Positions 3,628 through 41,164 of a stretch of DNA of 64,000 bases are shown in pieces. The DNA comes from an uncultured Candidatus Saccharibacteria bacterium (GTDB taxonomy: Bacteria > Patescibacteriota > UBA1384 > CAYGGE01): contig CAYGGE010000001.1 in NCBI GenBank assembly GCA_964349485.1, positions 4,665-68,664 on the forward strand, given 5' to 3'. Numbering within the stretch: the stretch's first letter is position 1; every line of letters begins with the position of its first letter. The notes beneath the pieces were generated by a model. That model did not search any database. It had not been told where the DNA came from and saw only the letters and a list, made by a program, of their open reading frames with translations. The position numbers and the translations under genes were made by a program.

Positions 3628-5439
3628 ATGGATACGAAAGGATCCCCTATGACCGAGATCTTGACGAAACTCGACAGCGCAAAACAGACCGGTGCACTGA
3701 GTGAAGCGGCTGTAATGAACATCAGGGCCTGGCTCATGAACGATCAGTTAGCTGATTTCCACCAACAGATCGTAAAACTGATTGATCAAAGTGATTGGCA
3801 GACGCTTTCCGATGATTTTTATACTCAACTTGAATTCGGGACAGCTGGGATCCGTGGCCGGACCGGACTTGGCTCGGCTAGGATCAATCGTTGGACTGTC
3901 GGTACAGCCACCCAGGGCTTAGCTGATTATATTCAACTAGCCGGTAATCCAACAAAGGGTGTAGTGATTGGCTCGGATACTCGCCTAACTAGCCCTGAAT
4001 TCGTCGAGTTAGTGATAAATATTCTCTCGTCCAACGACATTAAGGTCTATCGCTTTAAGAACCCGCCCCAGGTCGGCATGTTCTCATTTGCCGTAAGGCA
4101 TTTCAAAGCCCAAGCCGGTATCTACATCTCCGCCTCCCACAACCCACCGACCGATAACGGCCTGAAGATCTATTGGGAAGATGGCGCCCAGCTCCTCCCA
4201 CCCCACGACAAAGCGCTGATTGAGGCGGTGAAAAAGGTCGCGAAGTTTAACCAGACAACCAGACAACCAGACAATCAGACAACCATCATAGGTGAATCGT
4301 TTGATGAGACCTACCGTCACCGTGTCTTACAGGAATCTGTCTACGACGGACGAAGTGCCAAGATCGTCTATTCACCCTTCCATGGCACCGGCATCTACGG
4401 TGTACTACCGATCATGCGCGAAGCAGGCTTCGAAGTGATCACTGTCGACGAGCAGATGACCCCAGATGGTAACTTTCCCAATATACCAGGCGGCATACCC
4501 AACCCTCAAAACCGAGAGTCCAATACTCTAACCGCCCAAAAAGTACTAGAGACAGGCGCCGATGTGGGCATATCGACTGATCCCGACGCTGATCGATTAG
4601 CTTTAGTCGTACCAAAAGGAGACACCACATTCATCTTAGACGGCAATGAAACAGCGACATTGCTAGCTTACTTCATCTGTAAACAACTCAAAGAGGGACA
4701 TAAACTACCCACTAATGGGTTTTTAGTTCGGACTTTCGTATCGACTCCCATGATCGATGCCATCGCCGACGACTTTGGTCTGAAGTATTACAGTGACTTG
4801 CCCGTTGGCTTTAAATTTATAGGTGAGTGCATTAAACAGCACGAAGATGTAGGCAATGAACTGTTCATCTTTGCAGGTGAAGAAAGCTTTGGTTGTCTCA
4901 AAGGCTCTTACGCTCGAGATAAGGATGCTTCATCGGCAGTCTTAATTGCCGCTGAAATGATAAGCTGGCTCAAAGACACGGGTAAAACCGTCTGGGATCT
5001 GCTCGACGAGGTCTACAACAAGTACGGTTATTACTTGCTTGATCTTGTAGATATCAAAATCGAAGGCGCATCTGGTTTCGATACCATGACTAAGCTCATG
5101 AACGGTCTGCGCAGTGCACCACCACAGACGATTGGTAGCTGGAATGTTAAGCGAGTTATCGACCGGTCATGCAACGAAGTTAAAGATAATTCAAGCGAAG
5201 TGATAGAGAAACTTGTGGGACACACCACCAATGCGATCATCTTAGAGCTTTCTGACGATCATAATAATTGGGTCGTTGTCCGACCATCGGGTACTGAGCC
5301 AAAAGTGAAGCTCTATACCTGTGTCTATCAACCTGTGACAGGTAGTAAATCTATCGCTTCGGTTCGAGAGACTGCATTGCAAACTAGCCAACAACTCAAA
5401 ACAGCAATAACCACACTGGTTGAGCGATCAACTAGCTAG
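3628..5439 (+). CDS. Phosphoglucomutase/phosphomannomutase (alpha-D-phosphohexomutase family)
   Basis: Catalytic serine loop SASHNPPTDNGLKIY, metal-binding DPDADRLALV, GEESFG sugar-binding loop, and FGTAGIRG near the N-terminus. The true start is possibly ATG 3649 (MTEILTK), which has AAGGA 8 nt upstream. Confidence 0.9.
   Translation: MDTKGSPMTEILTKLDSAKQTGALSEAAVMNIRAWLMNDQLADFHQQIVKLIDQSDWQTLSDDFYTQLEFGTAGIRGRTGLGSARINRWTVGTATQGLADYIQLAGNPTKGVVIGSDTRLTSPEFVELVINILSSNDIKVYRFKNPPQVGMFSFAVRHFKAQAGIYISASHNPPTDNGLKIYWEDGAQLLPPHDKALIEAVKKVAKFNQTTRQPDNQTTIIGESFDETYRHRVLQESVYDGRSAKIVYSPFHGTGIYGVLPIMREAGFEVITVDEQMTPDGNFPNIPGGIPNPQNRESNTLTAQKVLETGADVGISTDPDADRLALVVPKGDTTFILDGNETATLLAYFICKQLKEGHKLPTNGFLVRTFVSTPMIDAIADDFGLKYYSDLPVGFKFIGECIKQHEDVGNELFIFAGEESFGCLKGSYARDKDASSAVLIAAEMISWLKDTGKTVWDLLDEVYNKYGYYLLDLVDIKIEGASGFDTMTKLMNGLRSAPPQTIGSWNVKRVIDRSCNEVKDNSSEVIEKLVGHTTNAIILELSDDHNNWVVVRPSGTEPKVKLYTCVYQPVTGSKSIASVRETALQTSQQLKTAITTLVERSTS
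4249..4281 (+). repeat. In-frame microsatellite (CAGACAAC-like unit x4) inside the phosphoglucomutase gene
   Basis: The DNA reads ccagacaaccagacaaccagacaatcagacaacc, encoding QTTRQPDNQTT. The 13-mer aaccagacaacca recurs at 9083-9095 in the groEL leader. Confidence 0.6.
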
Positions 5440-5447
5440 GAGGACTT

Positions 5448-5828
5448 ATGGAACGAAATATGAACGGAGAACCGATATTTGACAGTGGAGCCAATGGTAA
5501 TCGGCGTGAGACTGACCGCCTGGGTGGTTTCAATATCACGGTCTCCAATATCATTGCTCACGAAATACCCGGACCGACTGAATACCATGTCTCTGCAAGT
5601 CCAGAGATCGATGATACTAAATTATATGAGCAAGATATAAAACCACTAGAGAGAACATACATTGTAACCTCTTTCACTGACGGAAAGTCTGGTGCGACAC
5701 TTAATTCCTATGAGATAAGCAGACTTAAGGATAGTCATGCGGCACTCAGGTTGGAAGTGAATCCAACTAGTCAGCCCGAGAGCCCAGAGAACAGCGACCA
5801 AAAAAGTTATCGAGCGATAGTCAATTGA
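5448..5828 (+). CDS. Hypothetical protein (126 aa), probably co-transcribed with phosphoglucomutase
   Basis: AGGAGG 5 nt upstream of the ATG, 8 nt after the PGM stop. No recognizable motif. Confidence 0.55.
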   Translation: MERNMNGEPIFDSGANGNRRETDRLGGFNITVSNIIAHEIPGPTEYHVSASPEIDDTKLYEQDIKPLERTYIVTSFTDGKSGATLNSYEISRLKDSHAALRLEVNPTSQPESPENSDQKSYRAIVN

Positions 5829-5860
5829 GCCGTCTGATTATGCACTATCAGTCAATAGCT

Positions 5861-6844
5861 CTAAAGTAAACCAACTTTCTGCTTTATCTGTTTGAGCGAT
5901 AGACTGGCCACTACCTGAGCTTTAGCGGCTCCATCTTTTAGAACAACGTCTAGAGCTGATTTGTCGAGAATTAAAGCCTGATACTTTACTTGAATAGGTG
6001 TCAGGAAATTAACAATTTCATCAGCTAGATCAGCCTTAAACCGACCATATCCGGTAGAGCCATAATCCTGTTCTAAATCGCTTATTTCACGATCACTAAT
6101 CGCTGAAAAAATAGTAAGTAAGTTGCTAATCGCTGGTTTGTGCTGCTTATCAAACCGCACCTCAGCTTCTGAATCGGTCACCGCACTTTTAATTTTTTCC
6201 CGAATTTGCGCTGGATTATCCAACAAACTAATGTAATTATTGGGACCCAACGACTTACTCATTTTTTTACTCGGATTATCGAGAGCCATTATCCGGGCGG
6301 TCTGTTCAGGTAGGTAAGGATCGGGGACGACAAAGGTTTTGCCGTACTTAGTGTTGAACCGTGTAGCCAGATTACGAGTCAGCTCAACGTGCTGTTTCTG
6401 GTCATCGCCGACAGGCACGAGTTGGGGCTGATATAGCAAGATATCTGCCGACATTAGCACTGGATAAGTAAAGAGACCAGCCGAAACAGATTCTTGGTCT
6501 TCACCAGCCTTATCTTTGTACTGCGTCATCCGGCGCAATTCACCCATGTAAGTAATACAATTCAAAATCCAAGCTAGCTCGGTATGCTCAGGCACCATCG
6601 ACTGAACAAAAAGGGTAGCTTTTTTAGGATCAAGACCAAGCGCCAGATAGAGAGCAGTTAGTTTGTAAACGTTCTCCCGCAAGACATCTGGCTTGATCGG
6701 CATGGTTAAGGCATGCAGATTAACAATCATGTAGAAAGCCTCATGAACTTCTTGGAACTCAAGCCACTGCTTGACCGCCCCAATGTAGTTACCGAGATGA
6801 AGCTCACCATTGCCGGTCGGCTGGATACCTGAGAGAACTCGCAT
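5861..6844 (-). CDS. trpS: Tryptophanyl-tRNA synthetase
   Basis: 327 aa class I aaRS. The HIGH-type motif is GIQPTGNGELHLGNYIGA. KMSKS is present. Size and motif spacing are typical of TrpS. Confidence 0.9.
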   Translation of the reverse strand: MRVLSGIQPTGNGELHLGNYIGAVKQWLEFQEVHEAFYMIVNLHALTMPIKPDVLRENVYKLTALYLALGLDPKKATLFVQSMVPEHTELAWILNCITYMGELRRMTQYKDKAGEDQESVSAGLFTYPVLMSADILLYQPQLVPVGDDQKQHVELTRNLATRFNTKYGKTFVVPDPYLPEQTARIMALDNPSKKMSKSLGPNNYISLLDNPAQIREKIKSAVTDSEAEVRFDKQHKPAISNLLTIFSAISDREISDLEQDYGSTGYGRFKADLADEIVNFLTPIQVKYQALILDKSALDVVLKDGAAKAQVVASLSLKQIKQKVGLL

Positions 6845-6929
6845 AGAACCTTCACTTTCTATGAAAACTATACCGTATGATAGGATGTGAGTAAACAGGA
6901 AGCATAATCATTAGTTAATCGATATTACG

Positions 6930-7448
6930 ATGTCACATTGGCAAAACGACAATCAGCAAACACTGACGAAAGCACTAAAAATTATTCGGGCTATCCCTTT
7001 CACGCGGGGGATCTCCTTGACTGGCTCACAAGCCGAGCGTCGGGCAACGGCGAAAAGCGATATCGATCTTTTCGTACAGATCGAGCCGGATTGGATATGG
7101 AGTACTCGGTTTTTTGTGACCTTAATCGTCCACCTAGCAGGCATCCGACGGACTAATACAGATATTGCGGGCAAGATTTGTTTGAACTGGTTCGCGACGT
7201 TTAATGCTCCAGCGGACCAGAAAGATAGACTATACCTGCAGTTATGGCAGGCCACAAACAAGGAAGGAGGTAGTTTGAAACCATTTATGGAAAAAATGAT
7301 TTCAATTCTCCAGGGAAAATACGTAGAAAAATTACTAAAATATTATCAAATTAAGCGAATAGAGCGCGATCCAAGAACTCACATTATAGGATCGTTAGTC
7401 CGCCATTCGGACCAAGAGCTCGGTTTCCACCCGCCAAAGAACCGTTAG
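6930..7448 (+). CDS. Minimal nucleotidyltransferase-fold protein (Pol-beta-like NTase)
   Basis: GISLTGSQAERRATAKSDIDLFVQ fits the [GS]-x(9-13)-DxD nucleotidyltransferase signature. No HEPN partner lies adjacent. Confidence 0.5.
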   Translation: MSHWQNDNQQTLTKALKIIRAIPFTRGISLTGSQAERRATAKSDIDLFVQIEPDWIWSTRFFVTLIVHLAGIRRTNTDIAGKICLNWFATFNAPADQKDRLYLQLWQATNKEGGSLKPFMEKMISILQGKYVEKLLKYYQIKRIERDPRTHIIGSLVRHSDQELGFHPPKNR

Positions 7449-7453
7449 AATAG

Positions 7454-7483
7454 CAAAACCCGCCGCTCGAACCCGAGGGCGGG
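7454..7483 (-). terminator. Rho-independent terminator for the minus-strand small-membrane-protein pair
   Basis: Hairpin CCCGCCGCTCG-AACC-CGAGGGCGGG at 7459-7483. On the minus strand it is followed by the U-tract GGGUUUUGCUAUU (plus-strand 7454-7458 caaaa). Confidence 0.55.
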
Positions 7484-7510
7484 CATGTATTGCTCCCTGA
7501 ACCGATCATG

Positions 7511-7780
7511 TCACATGAAGTCGGGCAGTTTATACTGGCCCTTTTTCGCCTGTTGTTCCAATGTGAGACCGATCACTTGACAGGCAAATGAAAGGACGAC
7601 GAGAAAGGTGGACAGATAGTTGTCCAGGCGGTACTCGACCGCCGCTATAGCGAGTAATGTCACGGCGACGGCCGTCACTTTAACTTTCCATGACTCCCGC
7701 AGAAGACATGCTACATCTTCGTTCTTAGGTTTGGAAACGGCGGACTTGTCGAACCCCTTCTGGTGTACACTTGGCATCAC
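7511..7780 (-). CDS. Small membrane protein (89 aa), hypothetical
   Basis: ORF with a central hydrophobic segment (VTAVAVTLLAIAAVEY...LVVLSFACQVIGL). Its start overlaps the stop of the upstream ORF by 4 nt. Confidence 0.4.
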   Translation of the reverse strand: MMPSVHQKGFDKSAVSKPKNEDVACLLRESWKVKVTAVAVTLLAIAAVEYRLDNYLSTFLVVLSFACQVIGLTLEQQAKKGQYKLPDFM

Positions 7781-8037
7781 TGCTCCTCCTTTTCCAGGTG
7801 GATAATCACCAGCCTACAGACAAGCGTGATTAGCAGGAATACAATGGCCAGCTCGGGTAACCGCTGAGTCGCGGAAACCACCGCGAGAGCCAACACGCAA
7901 CAGGATGTCAAATCAATCCTTTTGATCTCCGTCTCCGGATCAATACCGCCGATATCTTCTTCTTCCCGCATTTTACCCAACCTTCCCCAAACGAGACAGC
8001 CACGATTGACGCGCTGTAAGTTTAAACTAAACCGCAC
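7777..8037 (-). CDS. Small membrane protein (86 aa), hypothetical
   Basis: Hydrophobic stretches (LTSCCVLALAVVSA; IVFLLITLVCRLVII). Translationally coupled to 7511-7780. Confidence 0.4.
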   Translation of the reverse strand: MRFSLNLQRVNRGCLVWGRLGKMREEEDIGGIDPETEIKRIDLTSCCVLALAVVSATQRLPELAIVFLLITLVCRLVIIHLEKEEQ

Positions 8038-8231
8038 CCTATGTCAAGGCTAGGACCTTCATTGAACCGACAATTGTAGGGTTAGTAGTGTCTGATGGCA
8101 TGACGAAACAAGTACAGGTCAGGACAATTAAAAAGCAGTCCGCCGGGTAAAACACCCAGGCGGACCGTGCAAGTTGTGCCACAGTAAGCCCAATGGGGCG
8201 GTGTGGCAAAGTAGCGATCGAGCCCAACTTT

Positions 8232-8354
8232 TTATAGATGAGACTCGGCGTTGGGGGTTCGCAGACCCTGGGCTGGCCAGTAGCCGGCCCGTAATTCAGA
8301 CAGTATCGCCGCGATCGCGGCGAGCAGCAGTAGTGCGAGGAAAATGTTGCGCAT
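8232..8354 (-). CDS. Candidate small hydrophobic peptide (about 40 aa) in a GC-rich islet
   Basis: Minus-strand ATG (complement of 8352-8354) gives MRNIFLALLLLAAIAAILSELRAGYWPAQGLRTPNAESHL. It lies 7 nt downstream of the stop of the preceding candidate peptide. It is below the ORF-track size cut-off. Confidence 0.3.
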   Translation of the reverse strand: MRNIFLALLLLAAIAAILSELRAGYWPAQGLRTPNAESHL

Positions 8355-8358
8355 GTAC

Positions 8359-8508
8359 TTCACTGCGTATCCTCCACTTTCACCCGAGCCGGGAAGCGGT
8401 TCGGGAACTCACGCTGTAAACATGCTCTTACTTCGGGCCAGAAGGCCCAGACGTAAAGTGGGGGAACCAACGCGATGCCCCCGAGTACCCACCAATTCAA
8501 TCCCAGCA
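8359..8508 (-). CDS. Candidate small membrane peptide (about 49 aa) in a GC-rich islet
   Basis: Strong SD AAAGGAGG sits 6 nt upstream of a TTG start (complement of 8506-8508). The product is MLGLNWWVLGGIALVPPLYVWAFWPEVRACLQREFPNRFPARVKVEDTQ. Coordinates are approximate to +/-1 nt. Confidence 0.35.
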
Positions 8509-8620
8509 ATTTATGCCTCCTTTCTGGGATGAAGCCACGCAGGGTCGAAAACGTAGCCTCCTAATCTAACACTTCTAAACCTGTTTGGTCAAGACAGAAT
8601 TGCTGAAATGTAAAGGGGAC

Positions 8621-9029: not shown

Positions 9030-9038
9030 TTCTCTAGT

Positions 9039-9075
9039 TATCTGGTTAGCTAGTTTCCTAGTAACTAACCAGATA
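9039..9075. promoter_or_regulatory. 11-bp perfect inverted repeat (TATCTGGTTAG-N15-CTAACCAGATA) in the groES-groEL spacer
   Basis: Arms at 9039-9049 and 9065-9075, read directly. The spacer contains two CTAG tetramers. It belongs to a recurrent CTAGTTA / AACCAG motif family (see findings). Confidence 0.5.
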
Positions 9076-9100
9076 GCAAGGCGAATAGACAACGAGATAA

Positions 9101-10765
<1,665 letters not shown>

Positions 10766-10800
10766 TTAACTAGTTATCTTATTCTCTAGTTACTAATACT

Positions 10801-10829
10801 AAAAAGTCCGCCTTACAAGCGGGCTTTTT
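10801..10829. terminator. Bidirectional rho-independent terminator between groEL (+) and the 10858-11199 ORF (-)
   Basis: AAAAAG-TCCGCC-ttacaa-GCGGGC-TTTTT: a 6-bp stem (one G-U pair) flanked by an A-run on one side and a T-run on the other. Confidence 0.6.
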
Positions 10830-10857: not shown

Positions 10858-11199
10858 CTACAGCGTTGGTGATGGAGTTGGTGATGGGGATAGCGAAGGA
10901 TCGATAGTTGGACTGGGTATAGGCGTGGCCTGGTCTTCGACATAATTGATTGACGGGATCTGTTGGGTACGATCGATGTAAGGAATTAGCGTGTTGACCG
11001 CTGGTTTAAGCACATCTACCCGGGCTAAACCGTTTAAGGCCCAAACGATGACAGCCAAGACGAGTGTCGCCCCAATTGCTGCGCCAATACCCGACAGCAT
11101 ACCATTGGTCAGATGACGCCAGGGAACCCAACGCTTGTTCAGCTCTTCAATCGACTGCGTAAGGTGTTCGATACTCTCTTTTAGGTCATCATAATCCAT
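10858..11199 (-). CDS. Hypothetical membrane protein with S/P/T-rich C-terminal tail
   Basis: TM segment GIGAAIGATLVLAVIVWAL; tail TPIPSPTIDPSLSPSPTPSPTL. Confidence 0.5.
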   Translation of the reverse strand: MDYDDLKESIEHLTQSIEELNKRWVPWRHLTNGMLSGIGAAIGATLVLAVIVWALNGLARVDVLKPAVNTLIPYIDRTQQIPSINYVEDQATPIPSPTIDPSLSPSPTPSPTL

Positions 11200-11222: not shown

Positions 11223-11720
11223 CTAGGCTTCAGCCGGTGCTGTCACCATGGTCATCGCTTCGTTATCTACAATAATACCACGCTTATCGATCGTGATCAC
11301 CTGTTCAGCGGCGATGATTCGATCAGAGAGCAAGTGGTGAACATAATATTTAACAATCATGCCAAGCTCCGTATCAAGCAGTAGGTCATGGGCTAGACCA
11401 AGATAATTGCCGTGTAGAGTCAATACTTTAGCTCCGAGAACTGGGACTTTTTTGGTTATGATAGCGCTTAACTTCGGCTCTTCGCTGGTTATCAGAGCGA
11501 TGTCTTCATGAGATGCGATAACTCGACTCTGGTCATAGCCAATAATATCATGAACCGAAACAATGTCTTGTTTAAGGTTCAAAAAACCATGGGAGTAAAA
11601 ATAGCCGACAAGCTTACCATTGGTAGGGTCAATAATCGGTTCACCAAGCAAACCAATCGTTTCGGCACCATCGAAGCTGATAATTGGTTGTCCAACCAGT
11701 TGGGAGATCAGGATGAGCAT
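11223..11720 (-). CDS. PRC-barrel-like protein (two tandem PRC-like modules), hypothetical
   Basis: LVGQPIISFDGAETIGLLGEPIIDPTNGKLVGY and KVPVLGAKVLTLHGNYLGLAHDLLLDTELGMIV resemble the G..V.d..G..lG.v.d PRC-barrel pattern. This is a weak call. Confidence 0.4.
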   Translation of the reverse strand: MLILISQLVGQPIISFDGAETIGLLGEPIIDPTNGKLVGYFYSHGFLNLKQDIVSVHDIIGYDQSRVIASHEDIALITSEEPKLSAIITKKVPVLGAKVLTLHGNYLGLAHDLLLDTELGMIVKYYVHHLLSDRIIAAEQVITIDKRGIIVDNEAMTMVTAPAEA

Positions 11721-11752
11721 GTATTTATTATAAGGTAAAAATTATAAGTTAA

Positions 11753-11812
11753 AAGGCAAAAGCGCAAGTAAAAATTCAAAACTTATTACTTTTAACCTGC
11801 AATTTTGCCTTT
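11753..11812. repeat. Copy A of a repeated intergenic element flanking efp (AAGGCAAAAG ... CAAGTAAAAAT ... CCTGCAATTTTGCCTT)
   Basis: It shares with copy B the terminal inverted repeat AAGGCAAAA/TTTTGCCTT, the internal CAAGT(T)AAAAAT block and CACCTGCAATTTTGCCTT, read directly. Confidence 0.7.
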
Positions 11813-11833
11813 CGGTCCATACCTTTTGATTTT

Positions 11834-12406
11834 TTATCTCACCCGTTCTACGTATTCCCCTGTTTCAGTGTTGATTCTAATCCTATCACCGATCTTCACG
11901 AAAGCGGGGACTTTAATAGTAGCACCTGTCTCTACTTTGGCGTCTTTCAAGACACTAGAAACAGTGTTACCTGAGGAGACCGACTCGGTATAGGTGACTT
12001 CTAGATCGATTTTAGGAGGAAGATTAACGCCAATCGGTTTATCGCGAAACGATAGAAGATCAACCATAGTGCCATCTTTAAGCAGTTCTCCTTGCTGACC
12101 AACAAGGTCAGATGGCAGTTCAAACTGATCGTAGGTCTCCATGTTCATAAAATGGTAGCTCGCCCCATCTTTATAGAGAAATTGCGCCTCATCGTGCGAC
12201 AAATTACCTTCTTCCAGGCGGTCAGAGTCTTTAAATGACTGCTCAGTAATTGCTCCCGAGAGCAAATTCTTTAGCTTTGCCTTAAGAATACCGGCCCCCC
12301 TGGCCTGTTTGATGTGTTGAGAAGCCATCACACGATAGGGTTCATCGCGAAAAGTGATAAACATGCCAGGTTTAACTTGAGCAATTGAATAGATAGAAAC
12401 CTCCAA
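11834..12406 (-). CDS. efp: Elongation factor P
   Basis: 190 aa; N-terminal region aligns with EF-P (SIAQVKPGMFITFRDEPYRV...KQARGAGILKAKLKNL replaces KPGKGxAFxRTKLKN). Length is typical. The start codon is uncertain (TTG 12406 or the internal ATG). Confidence 0.85.
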   Translation of the reverse strand: MEVSIYSIAQVKPGMFITFRDEPYRVMASQHIKQARGAGILKAKLKNLLSGAITEQSFKDSDRLEEGNLSHDEAQFLYKDGASYHFMNMETYDQFELPSDLVGQQGELLKDGTMVDLLSFRDKPIGVNLPPKIDLEVTYTESVSSGNTVSSVLKDAKVETGATIKVPAFVKIGDRIRINTETGEYVERVR

Positions 12407-12415
12407 TTAAGTCAG

Positions 12416-12488
12416 AAGGCAAAAGTTTGAGGGTATAAGTACAAGTTAAAAATAAAAACTTTGTACTCTTCACCTGCAATTTTGCCTT
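12416..12488. repeat. Copy B of the repeated intergenic element, between rpsR and efp
   Basis: It has the same terminal inverted repeat and internal conserved blocks as copy A, in the same orientation. Confidence 0.7.
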
Positions 12489-12500
12489 CTGTCTTTTGAG

Positions 12501-12713
12501 TTAGCGCGTTGTATAAGGCAGTAACGCTAAGAACCTCGCCCGCTTAATGGCGTCGGTTAATTGGCGTTGATGTCTGGAACATGCGCCGGTATCTTTACCG
12601 GGGCGAATTTTGGCCCATGGACTGGTGTAGCGGGCGAGTAAGGCGGCATCTTTGTAATCCACCTCATCTACCTTACGCTTACAAAATTGGCACTCTTTGC
12701 GTTTCATTCTCAT
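12501..12713 (-). CDS. rpsR: 30S ribosomal protein S18
   Basis: 70 aa; CQFCKRKVDEVDYKDAALLARYTS...RHQRQLTDAIKRARFLALLPY is canonical bS18. Confidence 0.95.
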   Translation of the reverse strand: MRMKRKECQFCKRKVDEVDYKDAALLARYTSPWAKIRPGKDTGACSRHQRQLTDAIKRARFLALLPYTTR

Positions 12714-12725
12714 AAATCATCCTTT

Positions 12726-13235
12726 TTAAAATGGTATGTCTTCAAGATTGATCTCATCATCAGCTGGTTCGGCTTTGGCTGGCGTGGCTTTAGCGATTGG
12801 TTTGGCTGACGCTTTCGGAGCCTCAGAGACGTCTAGGGTAGGGGCGGCATCGTTATTGAGGTCATCGAGACTATCGAAGTTGGCACCGTCACCACTTTGG
12901 CCTTTGGGCGTCAGAGGAACGAAGTTCTCAACGATTATCTCGGTCCGGCGTTGTTTCACCCCATCGGGTGTTTCCCAGGTTCGGGTTTGTAGGCGACCAT
13001 CGACGTAGATCTTGTTGCCTTTTTTGAGGTAGTTAGCGACAAATTCTGCCGCTTTCCCCCAGGCCACTACATCATGGTATTCCGTAGCCTCTTGAAACTC
13101 TCCCGAGCCCTGATTCTTCCAGCGACGATTGGTCGCTACCGAGAAAGTGGTTACTGCTTGACCATTTGGCGTGTAGCGAAGCTCCGGATCTCGAGTGATA
13201 TTGCCGATTACCTGGGCGCGATTCAATGAATACAT
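12726..13235 (-). CDS. ssb: Single-stranded DNA-binding protein
   Basis: OB-fold N-terminus (NRAQVIGNITRDPELRYTPNGQAV...), Gly/Ala/Pro-rich linker and acidic C-terminal tail ending DDEINLEDIPF. Confidence 0.95.
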   Translation of the reverse strand: MYSLNRAQVIGNITRDPELRYTPNGQAVTTFSVATNRRWKNQGSGEFQEATEYHDVVAWGKAAEFVANYLKKGNKIYVDGRLQTRTWETPDGVKQRRTEIIVENFVPLTPKGQSGDGANFDSLDDLNNDAAPTLDVSEAPKASAKPIAKATPAKAEPADDEINLEDIPF

Positions 13236-13340: not shown

Positions 13341-13964
13341 TTAGTCTTTGAGGATGTCAGAAAGCTTGTCTTCCAAGGCCTTCAAACGGTCTTCTTCTGT
13401 CGCTTCGGAAGCATCTTGATTCTTAGCGGCTTTCTTAGGAGCACGCTTTGGCTTCTCTTCTTTGGCAGTCTCAGTTACTTCTGGGGTAGTTTCTTCGGTA
13501 ACGACAGTTTCGTCTGGTGCTTCTTCGGCAGGAATCTCGTCAGCGATAGCTTTATCGAGAGCTTCCATCTTGGTTGCTTCAGTCTCTTCTTGGTTAGTGT
13601 TTACTACTTCTTGATTCACCGGCTCAGCCACTGTATCTTCCAACATCTCGGCGGCGGCAATTGCTTCACGAACTGTTTTAGAGACTTCCTTATTCGCCTT
13701 AGGAATCCGTTTGGTTACGATCAGGTGTCGTATGATCGCTGTGTTCAACCGAAGTTTTCGGTCAAGCGCAGCTTGTGCAGCTTCGTTAATATCGAAAACA
13801 AAGGTCGTGTAGACGGCCTGAGTCTCTTTATTGATTGGGTAGACGAGGCGACGTCGGCCCATGGTGCTTTCGACCTGAATAGTTCCGCCTGCCTCTTCGA
13901 TCGCGGCTTTTACGCCAGGATCAGCCTCTTCCTTGGTCAGGAAGGTAATTTCGTAGAGTGCCAT
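13341..13964 (-). CDS. rpsF: 30S ribosomal protein S6 with extended acidic C-terminal tail
   Basis: MALYEITFLTKEE...TMGRRRLVYPINKETQAVYTTFVFD is the canonical bS6 core. The rpsF-ssb-rpsR gene order is conserved. Confidence 0.95.
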   Translation of the reverse strand: MALYEITFLTKEEADPGVKAAIEEAGGTIQVESTMGRRRLVYPINKETQAVYTTFVFDINEAAQAALDRKLRLNTAIIRHLIVTKRIPKANKEVSKTVREAIAAAEMLEDTVAEPVNQEVVNTNQEETEATKMEALDKAIADEIPAEEAPDETVVTEETTPEVTETAKEEKPKRAPKKAAKNQDASEATEEDRLKALEDKLSDILKD

Positions 13965-14055: not shown

Positions 14056-14083
14056 ATTATAACAGGTTTGAGAAAAATAACAA
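14056..14083 (-). promoter_or_regulatory. Promoter of the rpsF-ssb-rpsR operon (TTGTTA-N16-TATAAT on the minus strand)
   Basis: TATAAT = complement of 14056-14061. TTGTTA = complement of 14078-14083. Confidence 0.5.
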
Positions 14084-31434: not shown

Positions 31435-31593
31435 GGGGCTGGTTACCGAGAATAATTATACCAGTTACTAGCAACCAGTTACTAGCACAACCAGCCCCGG
31501 TGGTTGACAGAAGCGCTCTCTGGCGGTAAACTGCGCATACTACTGAAGTAGCAACGGGCGGCTTCAGCGCTCCTTGGAGAAACGGAGAGTCAG

Positions 31594-40975: not shown

Positions 40976-41164
40976 ATCCAGAACCGGGAGACCGGGGCAA
41001 TTATCTGGTTTTCTAGTTTTCTAGTTAGTAACCAGCCAACTACTTGACCTTTTTAATTCGGATTTTTGCCATATAAGTGCTATACTTTTAAGGAAGGAAC
41101 CACCCGTCACCCGCCGTTAAGTCTATGGGTGATGAATCAGGTTTGGGTGGTAAGAAGGAGGGCA

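Follow-up and report, generated by a model that had tools for sequence, protein, structure and literature searches.

In the window (the whole 64-kb stretch of DNA analysed, which belongs to an uncultured Patescibacteria (CPR) bacterium), efp is the last gene of a minus-strand string, rpsF-ssb-rpsR-efp, and is followed on the same strand by a PRC-barrel gene and a DUF5665 gene. Each of the two spacers that border efp contains one copy of a short AT-rich element, copy B between rpsR and efp and copy A between efp and the PRC-barrel gene. The features of the region, from upstream to downstream, are as follows.

14056-14083, minus strand: candidate promoter of the rpsF-ssb-rpsR-(efp) string, TTGTTA-16-TGnTATAAT, from a consensus scan (10/12 positions plus the TG)
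13341-13964, minus strand: rpsF, first gene of the rpsF-ssb-rpsR string
12726-13235, minus strand: ssb
12501-12713, minus strand: rpsR (S18), from the ORF list, with Pfam PF01084 in the same-strain loci; directly upstream of copy B
12395-12500, minus strand: the whole rpsR-efp spacer (106 nt), consisting of the left flank TCAAAAG, then copy B, then the ancestral efp upstream sequence CTGACTTAATTGGAGG
12416-12488, minus strand: core of copy B (73 nt), AAGGCAAAA...TTTTGCCTT, in the rpsR-efp spacer; coding strand from 12488 to 12416, AAGGCAAAATTGCAGGTGAAGAGTACAAAGTTTTTATTTTTAACTTGTACTTATACCCTCAAACTTTTGCCTT
12472-12488 (copy B) and 11795-11811 (copy A), minus strand: exact common 17-mer AAGGCAAAATTGCAGGT, the 5′ arm, with 0 mismatches in both
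12426-12439, minus strand: 14-nt segment CTTATACCCTCAAA, present in copy B and missing from copy A in a gapped alignment
11834-12394, minus strand: efp, 186 codons if the start is the ATC at 12394-12392
11753-11811, minus strand: core of copy A (59 nt), in the efp-PRC spacer; coding strand from 11811 to 11753, AAGGCAAAATTGCAGGTTAAAAGTAATAAGTTTTGAATTTTTACTTGCGCTTTTGCCTT
11727-11754, minus strand: two tandem 14-nt units with a TATAAT each (11746-11741 and 11732-11727); TRF period 14, 2 copies, 92%
11223-11720, minus strand: PRC-barrel gene, downstream of copy A, from the ORF list, with PF05239 in the loci
10858-11199, minus strand: DUF5665 gene
10808-10822, minus strand: GC-rich intrinsic terminator of the ordinary type, after the DUF5665 gene

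The sequence at 14056-14083 is likely to be the promoter of the rpsF-ssb-rpsR-(efp) string, judging from its match to the consensus. Terminators of the source genome are usually short GC-rich hairpins with T-runs, such as the one at 10808-10822. Searches with EF-P and S18 returned metagenomic matches, the named relatives among them being annotated as Saccharimonadales, Berkelbacteria, Moranbacteria and Patescibacteria group, and efp is a syntenic core gene in all of the relatives compared.

A preliminary description of this DNA had reported two copies of an element bracketing efp in the same orientation. Sequence checks, 17-mer statistics and two further assemblies all confirm this, and A and B are paralogous. 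On the plus strand both copies open with AAGGCAAAAG (at 11753 and 12416) and close with ACCTGCAATTTTGCCTT (at 11811 and 12488), while on the coding strand both terminate in the closing arm CTTTTGCCTT. The common ends described earlier are thus present in both copies, with the correction that the longer block is 17 nt rather than 18, since the base preceding ACCTGCAATTTTGCCTT is A in copy A and C in copy B. The 9-bp terminal inverted repeat AAGGCAAAA/TTTTGCCTT was also found in both, and is longer than first thought, reaching 12 bp in B (CAGAAGGCAAAA/TTTTGCCTTCTG) and 10 bp in A. By blastn-short the copies are 85% identical over the first 47 nt (E = 1e-5), the nhmmer match at B has E = 9e-20, and repeat finding over the window also pairs A with B as one family (D5). 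With up to three mismatches allowed, the 17-mer was found three times, against 0.17 expected from window shuffles, and all three lie within A/B; in the window it is confined to the two copies, plus an imperfect inverted arm. Both copies recur without any change in two independent assemblies of the same strain, with 100% (L040) and 99.9% (L041) identity over 2.1 kb, which excludes a misassembly.

The relationship between the copies extends beyond the inverted repeat described earlier. Weaker homology, visible in an alignment of the two spacers, runs from TCAAAAG just after the upstream stop codon (contexts TAA-C-TCAAAAG and TAA-AAAA-TCAAAAG) to ACTTA on the 3′ side, and copy B has 14 nt more than copy A (12439-12426). 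The tails are GCC-TTTTAAC in A and GCC-TTCTGAC in B; after the GCC, copy A reads TTTTAACT (5 T in 8) at the end of the operon and copy B reads TTCTGACT (4 T in 8) in mid-operon. The GC content of the copies is 31–34%, compared with 48.9% for the window, and the 59–73-nt unit contains no ORF.

A 14-nt periodicity is seen on the 3′ side of both copies (11721-11762 and 12413-12439, minus strand). The periodic units are CTTTTGCCTTTTAA, CTTATAATTTTTAC and CTTATAATAAATAC at copy A, and CTTATACCCTCAAA, CTTTTGCCTTCTGA and CTTAATTGGAGGTT at copy B; the two copies differ in length by exactly one such unit. The periodicity possibly stems from replication slippage.

Both copies are predicted to form hairpins on the coding strand, with −31.1 kcal/mol and z = −6.3 for B, and −23.0 kcal/mol and z = −3.6 for A. 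The B hairpin stretches to 12413-12491 through CAG/CTG, and the A hairpin occupies 11752-11812 and is followed by UUUUAAC. The stem of A has a GGC/GCC core and is long, AT-rich (31% GC) and interrupted, with an apical region of ~27 nt. As coding-strand RNA it is more stable than its complement (−23.0 versus −15.2 kcal/mol) because of G-U pairs, and this asymmetry of the modelled folds points to a role of A at the RNA level rather than the DNA level. The outer fold common to both copies has 19 pairs, of which 14 are identical; one is changed on both sides (A-U to G-C), three are changed on one side yet still paired, and one is broken, in A only. The compensatory evidence that these two sequences provide is a single double change. 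Further in, the folds differ, with CTTATACCCTCAAA pairing with TTGCAGGTG in B and TGCAGGT pairing with ACTTGCG in A (MFE and constrained folds).

The efp loci of eleven relatives were available for comparison, nine of them at 63–87% EF-P identity. The rpsR-efp junction is only 18 nt long in L002 and 28–38 nt in L128, L129 and L131; that of L130 measures 167 nt and carries a terminator and its own promoter. In the closest outgroup, L132-L135 (EF-P 86.6%, GroEL 92.3%), it is 90 nt long and contains a hairpin of unlike sequence that has no U-tract and is not a terminator. This junction is evolutionarily plastic in the clade, ranging from 18 to 167 nt with three solutions among the relatives. When the junctions are aligned, B stands out as ~83 nt inserted after the rpsR stop codon and before the conserved TGACT...GGAGG sequence upstream of efp, and it is confined to the lineage of the window. 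The element had been called conserved, a label that has to be withdrawn, as none of the eleven efp loci carries a sequence homologue and Rfam has no match.

In almost all relatives, efp is followed by a terminator-like hairpin and then by a −10 hexamer before the PRC-barrel ATG. Copy A stands at the position where the relatives have their efp terminators. In L002 this terminator is GACGCTGC...GCAGCGTTTTTT; L129, L130 and L001 have one terminator hairpin each after efp, and L132 has a compact terminator overlapping the efp stop codon. The sequence directly after efp in L131 (3049-3116) is a perfect palindrome, 27 bp in the stem, flanked by an A-run and TTTAAGTTT. By eye, the hairpins of relatives resemble B (GGCAA-TTG...CTCAAA-TTGCC), and the L131 palindrome and the L132-L135 hairpin were considered as homologues of A/B. 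Such homology is unproven: shuffle tests gave p values of 0.02–0.9, and the similarity of the L131 palindrome to the B motifs (GGCAA-TTG, CTCAAA-TTGCC) is statistically indistinguishable from chance. A covariance model of B scored the L131 palindrome at 31 bits, and generic terminators also scored (11–16 bits).

A perfect TATAAT had been assigned to copy A. The sequence is there, in two boxes, but both are outside the repeated unit, in the tandem 14-nt duplication, and copy B has no TATAAT (the equivalent places read TATACC or CTTAATT). The proximal box is separated by 6 nt from the PRC-barrel ATG at 11720 (TATAAT-N6-ATG). It is kept in relatives that do not have the element: TATAAT or TATACT occurs 6 nt before the PRC ATG in L001 (1215-1224), L002 (4625-4645), L128, L129, L130 and L132, and L131 has a −10 hexamer 9 nt before it. 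No SD precedes the PRC-barrel ATG in the window or in six relatives. A −10 hexamer this close to a start codon that has no SD indicates that the PRC-barrel mRNA is probably leaderless, and that this is a conserved trait. The consensus scan found no sigma-70-like site, with −35 and −10 hexamers 16–18 nt apart, in 11753-11811, in 12416-12488 or after B. Hand inspection of B turned up TTGCAG-17-TTTATT (TTGAAT in A), which was rejected as a promoter because its −10 hexamer does not have the A that is essential in second place.

The start of efp had been described as having no SD and possibly using TTG, which does not agree with the sequence. A perfect SD, GGAGG, is found upstream of efp at 12404-12400 (minus strand), and 5 nt after it comes an ATC, in the alignment column where relatives have their ATG; the homologues begin M(L/Y)SIAQ. 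The TTG overlaps this SD and is therefore unlikely to be the start. The codon in the start column is ATC in the window (identical in three assemblies), ATA in L131 and ATG in the others, and in L131 (EF-P 69%) the ATA follows GAGGAGG and 4 nt (2460-2475). Judged from this alignment, efp appears to begin at a non-canonical codon. Gene callers chose an internal ATG both in the window (12364) and in L131, giving 176 aa rather than 186, and the ATG at 12364 cuts the conserved EF-P N-terminus. Elsewhere in the gene, the L041 assembly has a 2-nt deletion (4528-4531, corresponding to window ~12298-12303) that shortens a run of six G from GGGGGG to GGGG and puts efp out of frame in the conserved KQARGAG loop; the deletion is a mistake of that assembly or else a variant in the population.

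A count of copies had been proposed as a check, and the preliminary description had held that it would count against the proposal if only these two existed and relatives lacked them. This is largely what was found. No third copy or half-site was detected by HMM, BLAST or pattern searches in ~77 kb of the source genome, made up of the 64-kb window and ~13 kb of additional flanks taken from other assemblies of the same strain; the count of two refers to this length, the source contig alone being 211 kb. Rfam gave no match at gathering thresholds across the whole window, and at E values up to 10 over the copies it returned only two miRNA-precursor models and one scaRNA model, with 13–24 bits against thresholds of 65–107. 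There was no detectable homologue in ~690 kb of fetched loci, which include the efp loci of the eleven relatives. CPR loci with 35–46% identity were among the matches listed by an EF-P alignment search, and none of them contains the element. Elements with the same ends were absent from 14 long stretches (10–64 kb), and the window holds no second pair of matching ends of a parent IS or transposase. Pattern scans covered public collections that evidently do not include the source genome. Species-representative genomes gave 37 scattered single matches in unrelated phyla, none scored by the element HMM and all judged to be chance; JGI metagenome contigs gave no match and viral contigs two chance matches. 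BLAST against plasmids and phages returned only 28-nt AT-rich chance matches.

Several known classes of intergenic sequence resemble A/B in part. The general description of MITEs fits the inverted repeat, small size, AT-richness and hairpin transcript (PMC10969869). The inverted repeat of 9–12 bp falls within the ~4–30 bp of that class, and the unit is non-coding, shorter than 500 bp, AT-rich and able to form a stable stem-loop, but neither copy is flanked by direct repeats, which in MITEs differ between insertions. SPRITE is also a short, non-coding, hairpin-forming intergenic repeat with terminator-like copies at gene ends (PMC10969869); compared by description, it is dispersed in many copies within one genome, whereas A and B are two adjacent copies and have no sequence relation to it. 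The Correia elements (CREE) of Neisseria are likewise small, bounded by inverted repeats and inserted between operon genes, and they form an RNA hairpin that RNase III can bind or cleave and that can alter the expression of neighbours (PMC2649163). CREE occur in hundreds of copies, with inverted repeats of ~26 bp, an IHF site, a duplicated TA target and promoters that point outwards from the ends. A/B show none of these traits, having two copies, no TSD and no promoter.

Intrinsic terminators resemble A in some respects, as it also lies at an operon end, with a GGC/GCC stem core, flanking A-run and U-run, and the next promoter following. It departs from them in its long, interrupted, AT-rich stem and ~27-nt apical region, which are outside the criteria of the scan and set A apart from the usual terminators of the genome, and B has no U-tract. 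REP/BIME and REPIN sequences, such as the malE-malF REP of E. coli, are intercistronic palindromes that act as barriers at mRNA 3′ ends and uncouple operon genes. By analogy, B may be such an uncoupling barrier. REPs are GC-rich, ~35 nt long, marked by a strongly conserved 16–25-mer, present in high copy number and tied to RAYT transposases; A/B are AT-rich, 60–80 nt long and present twice, and are not assignable to the REP/REPIN class. An integron attC site is an imperfect palindrome ending in an inverse core RYYYAAC and a core GTTRRRY, next to an intI-linked cassette array. This identity was rejected for A/B: their ends are AAGGCAAAA/TTTTGCCTT, the flanks are TTAAC and CTGAC, there is no GTTRRRY, and efp is a core gene in syntenic position.

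The interpretation we prefer, with middling confidence, is that A and B are a lineage-local paralogous duplication of an AT-rich palindromic spacer, whose function, if any, would be that of RNA stem-loops. With 85% identity between the copies and no detectable similarity between the spacers on either side of the split from L132, the duplication must, on sequence divergence, be much younger than that split. Copy A would replace the usual efp terminator, its long hairpin with a GGC/GCC core followed by UUUUAAC ending the rpsF-ssb-rpsR-efp transcript directly upstream of the leaderless promoter of the PRC-barrel gene. It has the U-rich tract and operon-end position of a terminator, yet a long AT-rich stem, and was not called by the consensus scan. 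Copy B would be the same module inserted in the normally tight rpsR-efp junction, with the tail UUCUGAC, and might work as a leaky or attenuating intercistronic hairpin; alternatively it may be a barrier to 3′-exonucleases or a target of a double-strand RNase (RNase III). As no promoter was found in or after B, efp expression would need transcription through B, and B could uncouple the amount of EF-P made from that of the ribosomal proteins. The functions first suggested included RNA processing and attenuation, and a role as an RNA hairpin (in termination, attenuation or processing) is still the functional reading that fits best; the sequence would predict termination at A, read-through at B and effects on processing or stability.

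This local duplication is favoured over a MITE- or REPIN-like non-autonomous mobile element that is dispersed in the genome, flanks efp by chance and alters expression only as a by-product, a reading that is possible but doubtful. Such an element would be expected to look much like A and B, which are small, without an ORF, bounded by a 9–12 bp inverted repeat, AT-rich in a 49% GC genome and able to give a stable hairpin transcript; B is moreover a clean insertion relative to the relatives, and known MITEs may be low-copy (1–22 per genome) and may cluster. The boundaries do not fit. Neither copy shows a target-site duplication. On the right the flanks are GAC and AAC, and the GAC on the left of each copy is homologous flank; GAC as a 3-bp target duplication around B was rejected on this account, since the left GAC also occurs in the homologous flank of A. 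The homology of A and B passes the inverted repeat on both sides. The distribution also argues against mobility, as there are only two copies, adjacent to each other, with no third copy or half-site in the window and its flanks (~77 kb), same-ended elements are absent from the 14 long stretches, plasmids and phages, and the pattern scans were unconvincing. A less probable account still is that a local duplication and deletion left A and B behind as neutral debris, for example from a tandem efp-plus-terminator unit that lost one efp. In that case B would have no function, and since an insert that pairs with itself leaves neighbouring signals undisturbed, the hairpins would be tolerated. Several observations would be consistent with debris: in both copies a stop codon immediately precedes the homologous region, A and B are neighbours in direct orientation, each has diverged 14-nt slippage units on its 3′ side, and no relative carries the element by sequence. 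Against it, the changes between A and B leave the common helices paired, and the closest outgroup also has a hairpin at the position of B. Copy A fills the only terminator position of the operon, so that A at least is probably used.

The remaining two readings are both very improbable. One is a conserved cis-regulatory RNA, or a small ncRNA as had also been suggested, dedicated to efp or to the PRC-barrel gene. The predicted structure is strong, and the copy upstream of efp stops 9–12 nt before the SD, but Rfam, searched up to E = 10, gave nothing beyond miRNA noise, no homologue by sequence occurs in the relatives, A and B fold differently inside, A lies upstream of the PRC promoter and not in a 5′ UTR, and no promoter/terminator pair delimits an sRNA. 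Nor is the accessibility of the SD altered when a ribosome is modelled at the rpsR stop codon; translational coupling through the base of the hairpin was rejected, the predicted accessibility being the same when the rpsR stop region is held open. The other, equally remote, is the promoter-bearing repeat of the preliminary description, which would give efp and the PRC-barrel gene transcription starts of their own. A perfect TATAAT does adjoin copy A, and the efp gene of L130 has its own promoter inside a palindromic spacer. The TATAAT boxes, however, are not in the common unit and belong to the leaderless promoter of the PRC-barrel gene itself, which relatives keep without the element; B has none, no sigma-70-like site was found by scanning either copy, and the hexamers picked by hand lack the A at −10 position 2.

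A more far-reaching view, which we consider improbable, is that A and B are the tip of an undescribed Patescibacteria family of small AT-rich palindromic mobile elements. These would serve as portable terminator or insulator hairpins, and would have made efp, formerly the co-translated tail of S6-SSB-S18, a cistron tuned on its own, with a weak AUC start. If the preferred reading of a local duplication acting through RNA stem-loops is true, a streamlined CPR genome has put a single hairpin module to two uses, ending the operon with one copy and parting an essential translation factor from ribosomal protein genes with the other. No new class of element or mechanism is opened by this; the feature is real but ordinary and lineage-specific, and its main practical value is in annotation, where it concerns the start codon of efp, the leaderless state of the PRC gene and how the terminator is called.

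Other intergenic sequences of the window and its relatives also form palindromes. Repeats with an 8-nt period, TCTGGTTn/TCTAGTTn (complement AACCAGAn/AACTAGAn), do so in several spacers of the window (4240-4293, 9030-9130, 10766-10800, 31435-31500 and 40995-41040), and are found on both sides of groEL. In L130 (2395-2500) they surround the TATAAT in the rpsR-efp spacer and make up the SD-less 5′ UTR of efp. These repeats constitute a second, clade-wide intergenic repeat family, unrelated in sequence to A/B. A 372-nt spacer at 7972-8343 (53% GC) has a predicted fold of −136 kcal/mol and no Rfam match at gathering thresholds, and looks like an unannotated structured RNA as far as modelling can tell. 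At the other end of the window, ~4–7 kb past its right edge, L047 carries PrgI-, TraC- and VirB4/TraG-like genes (5694-8616), a type IV secretion or conjugation-like cluster that lies just downstream of the giant ORFs at window 46–63 kb.
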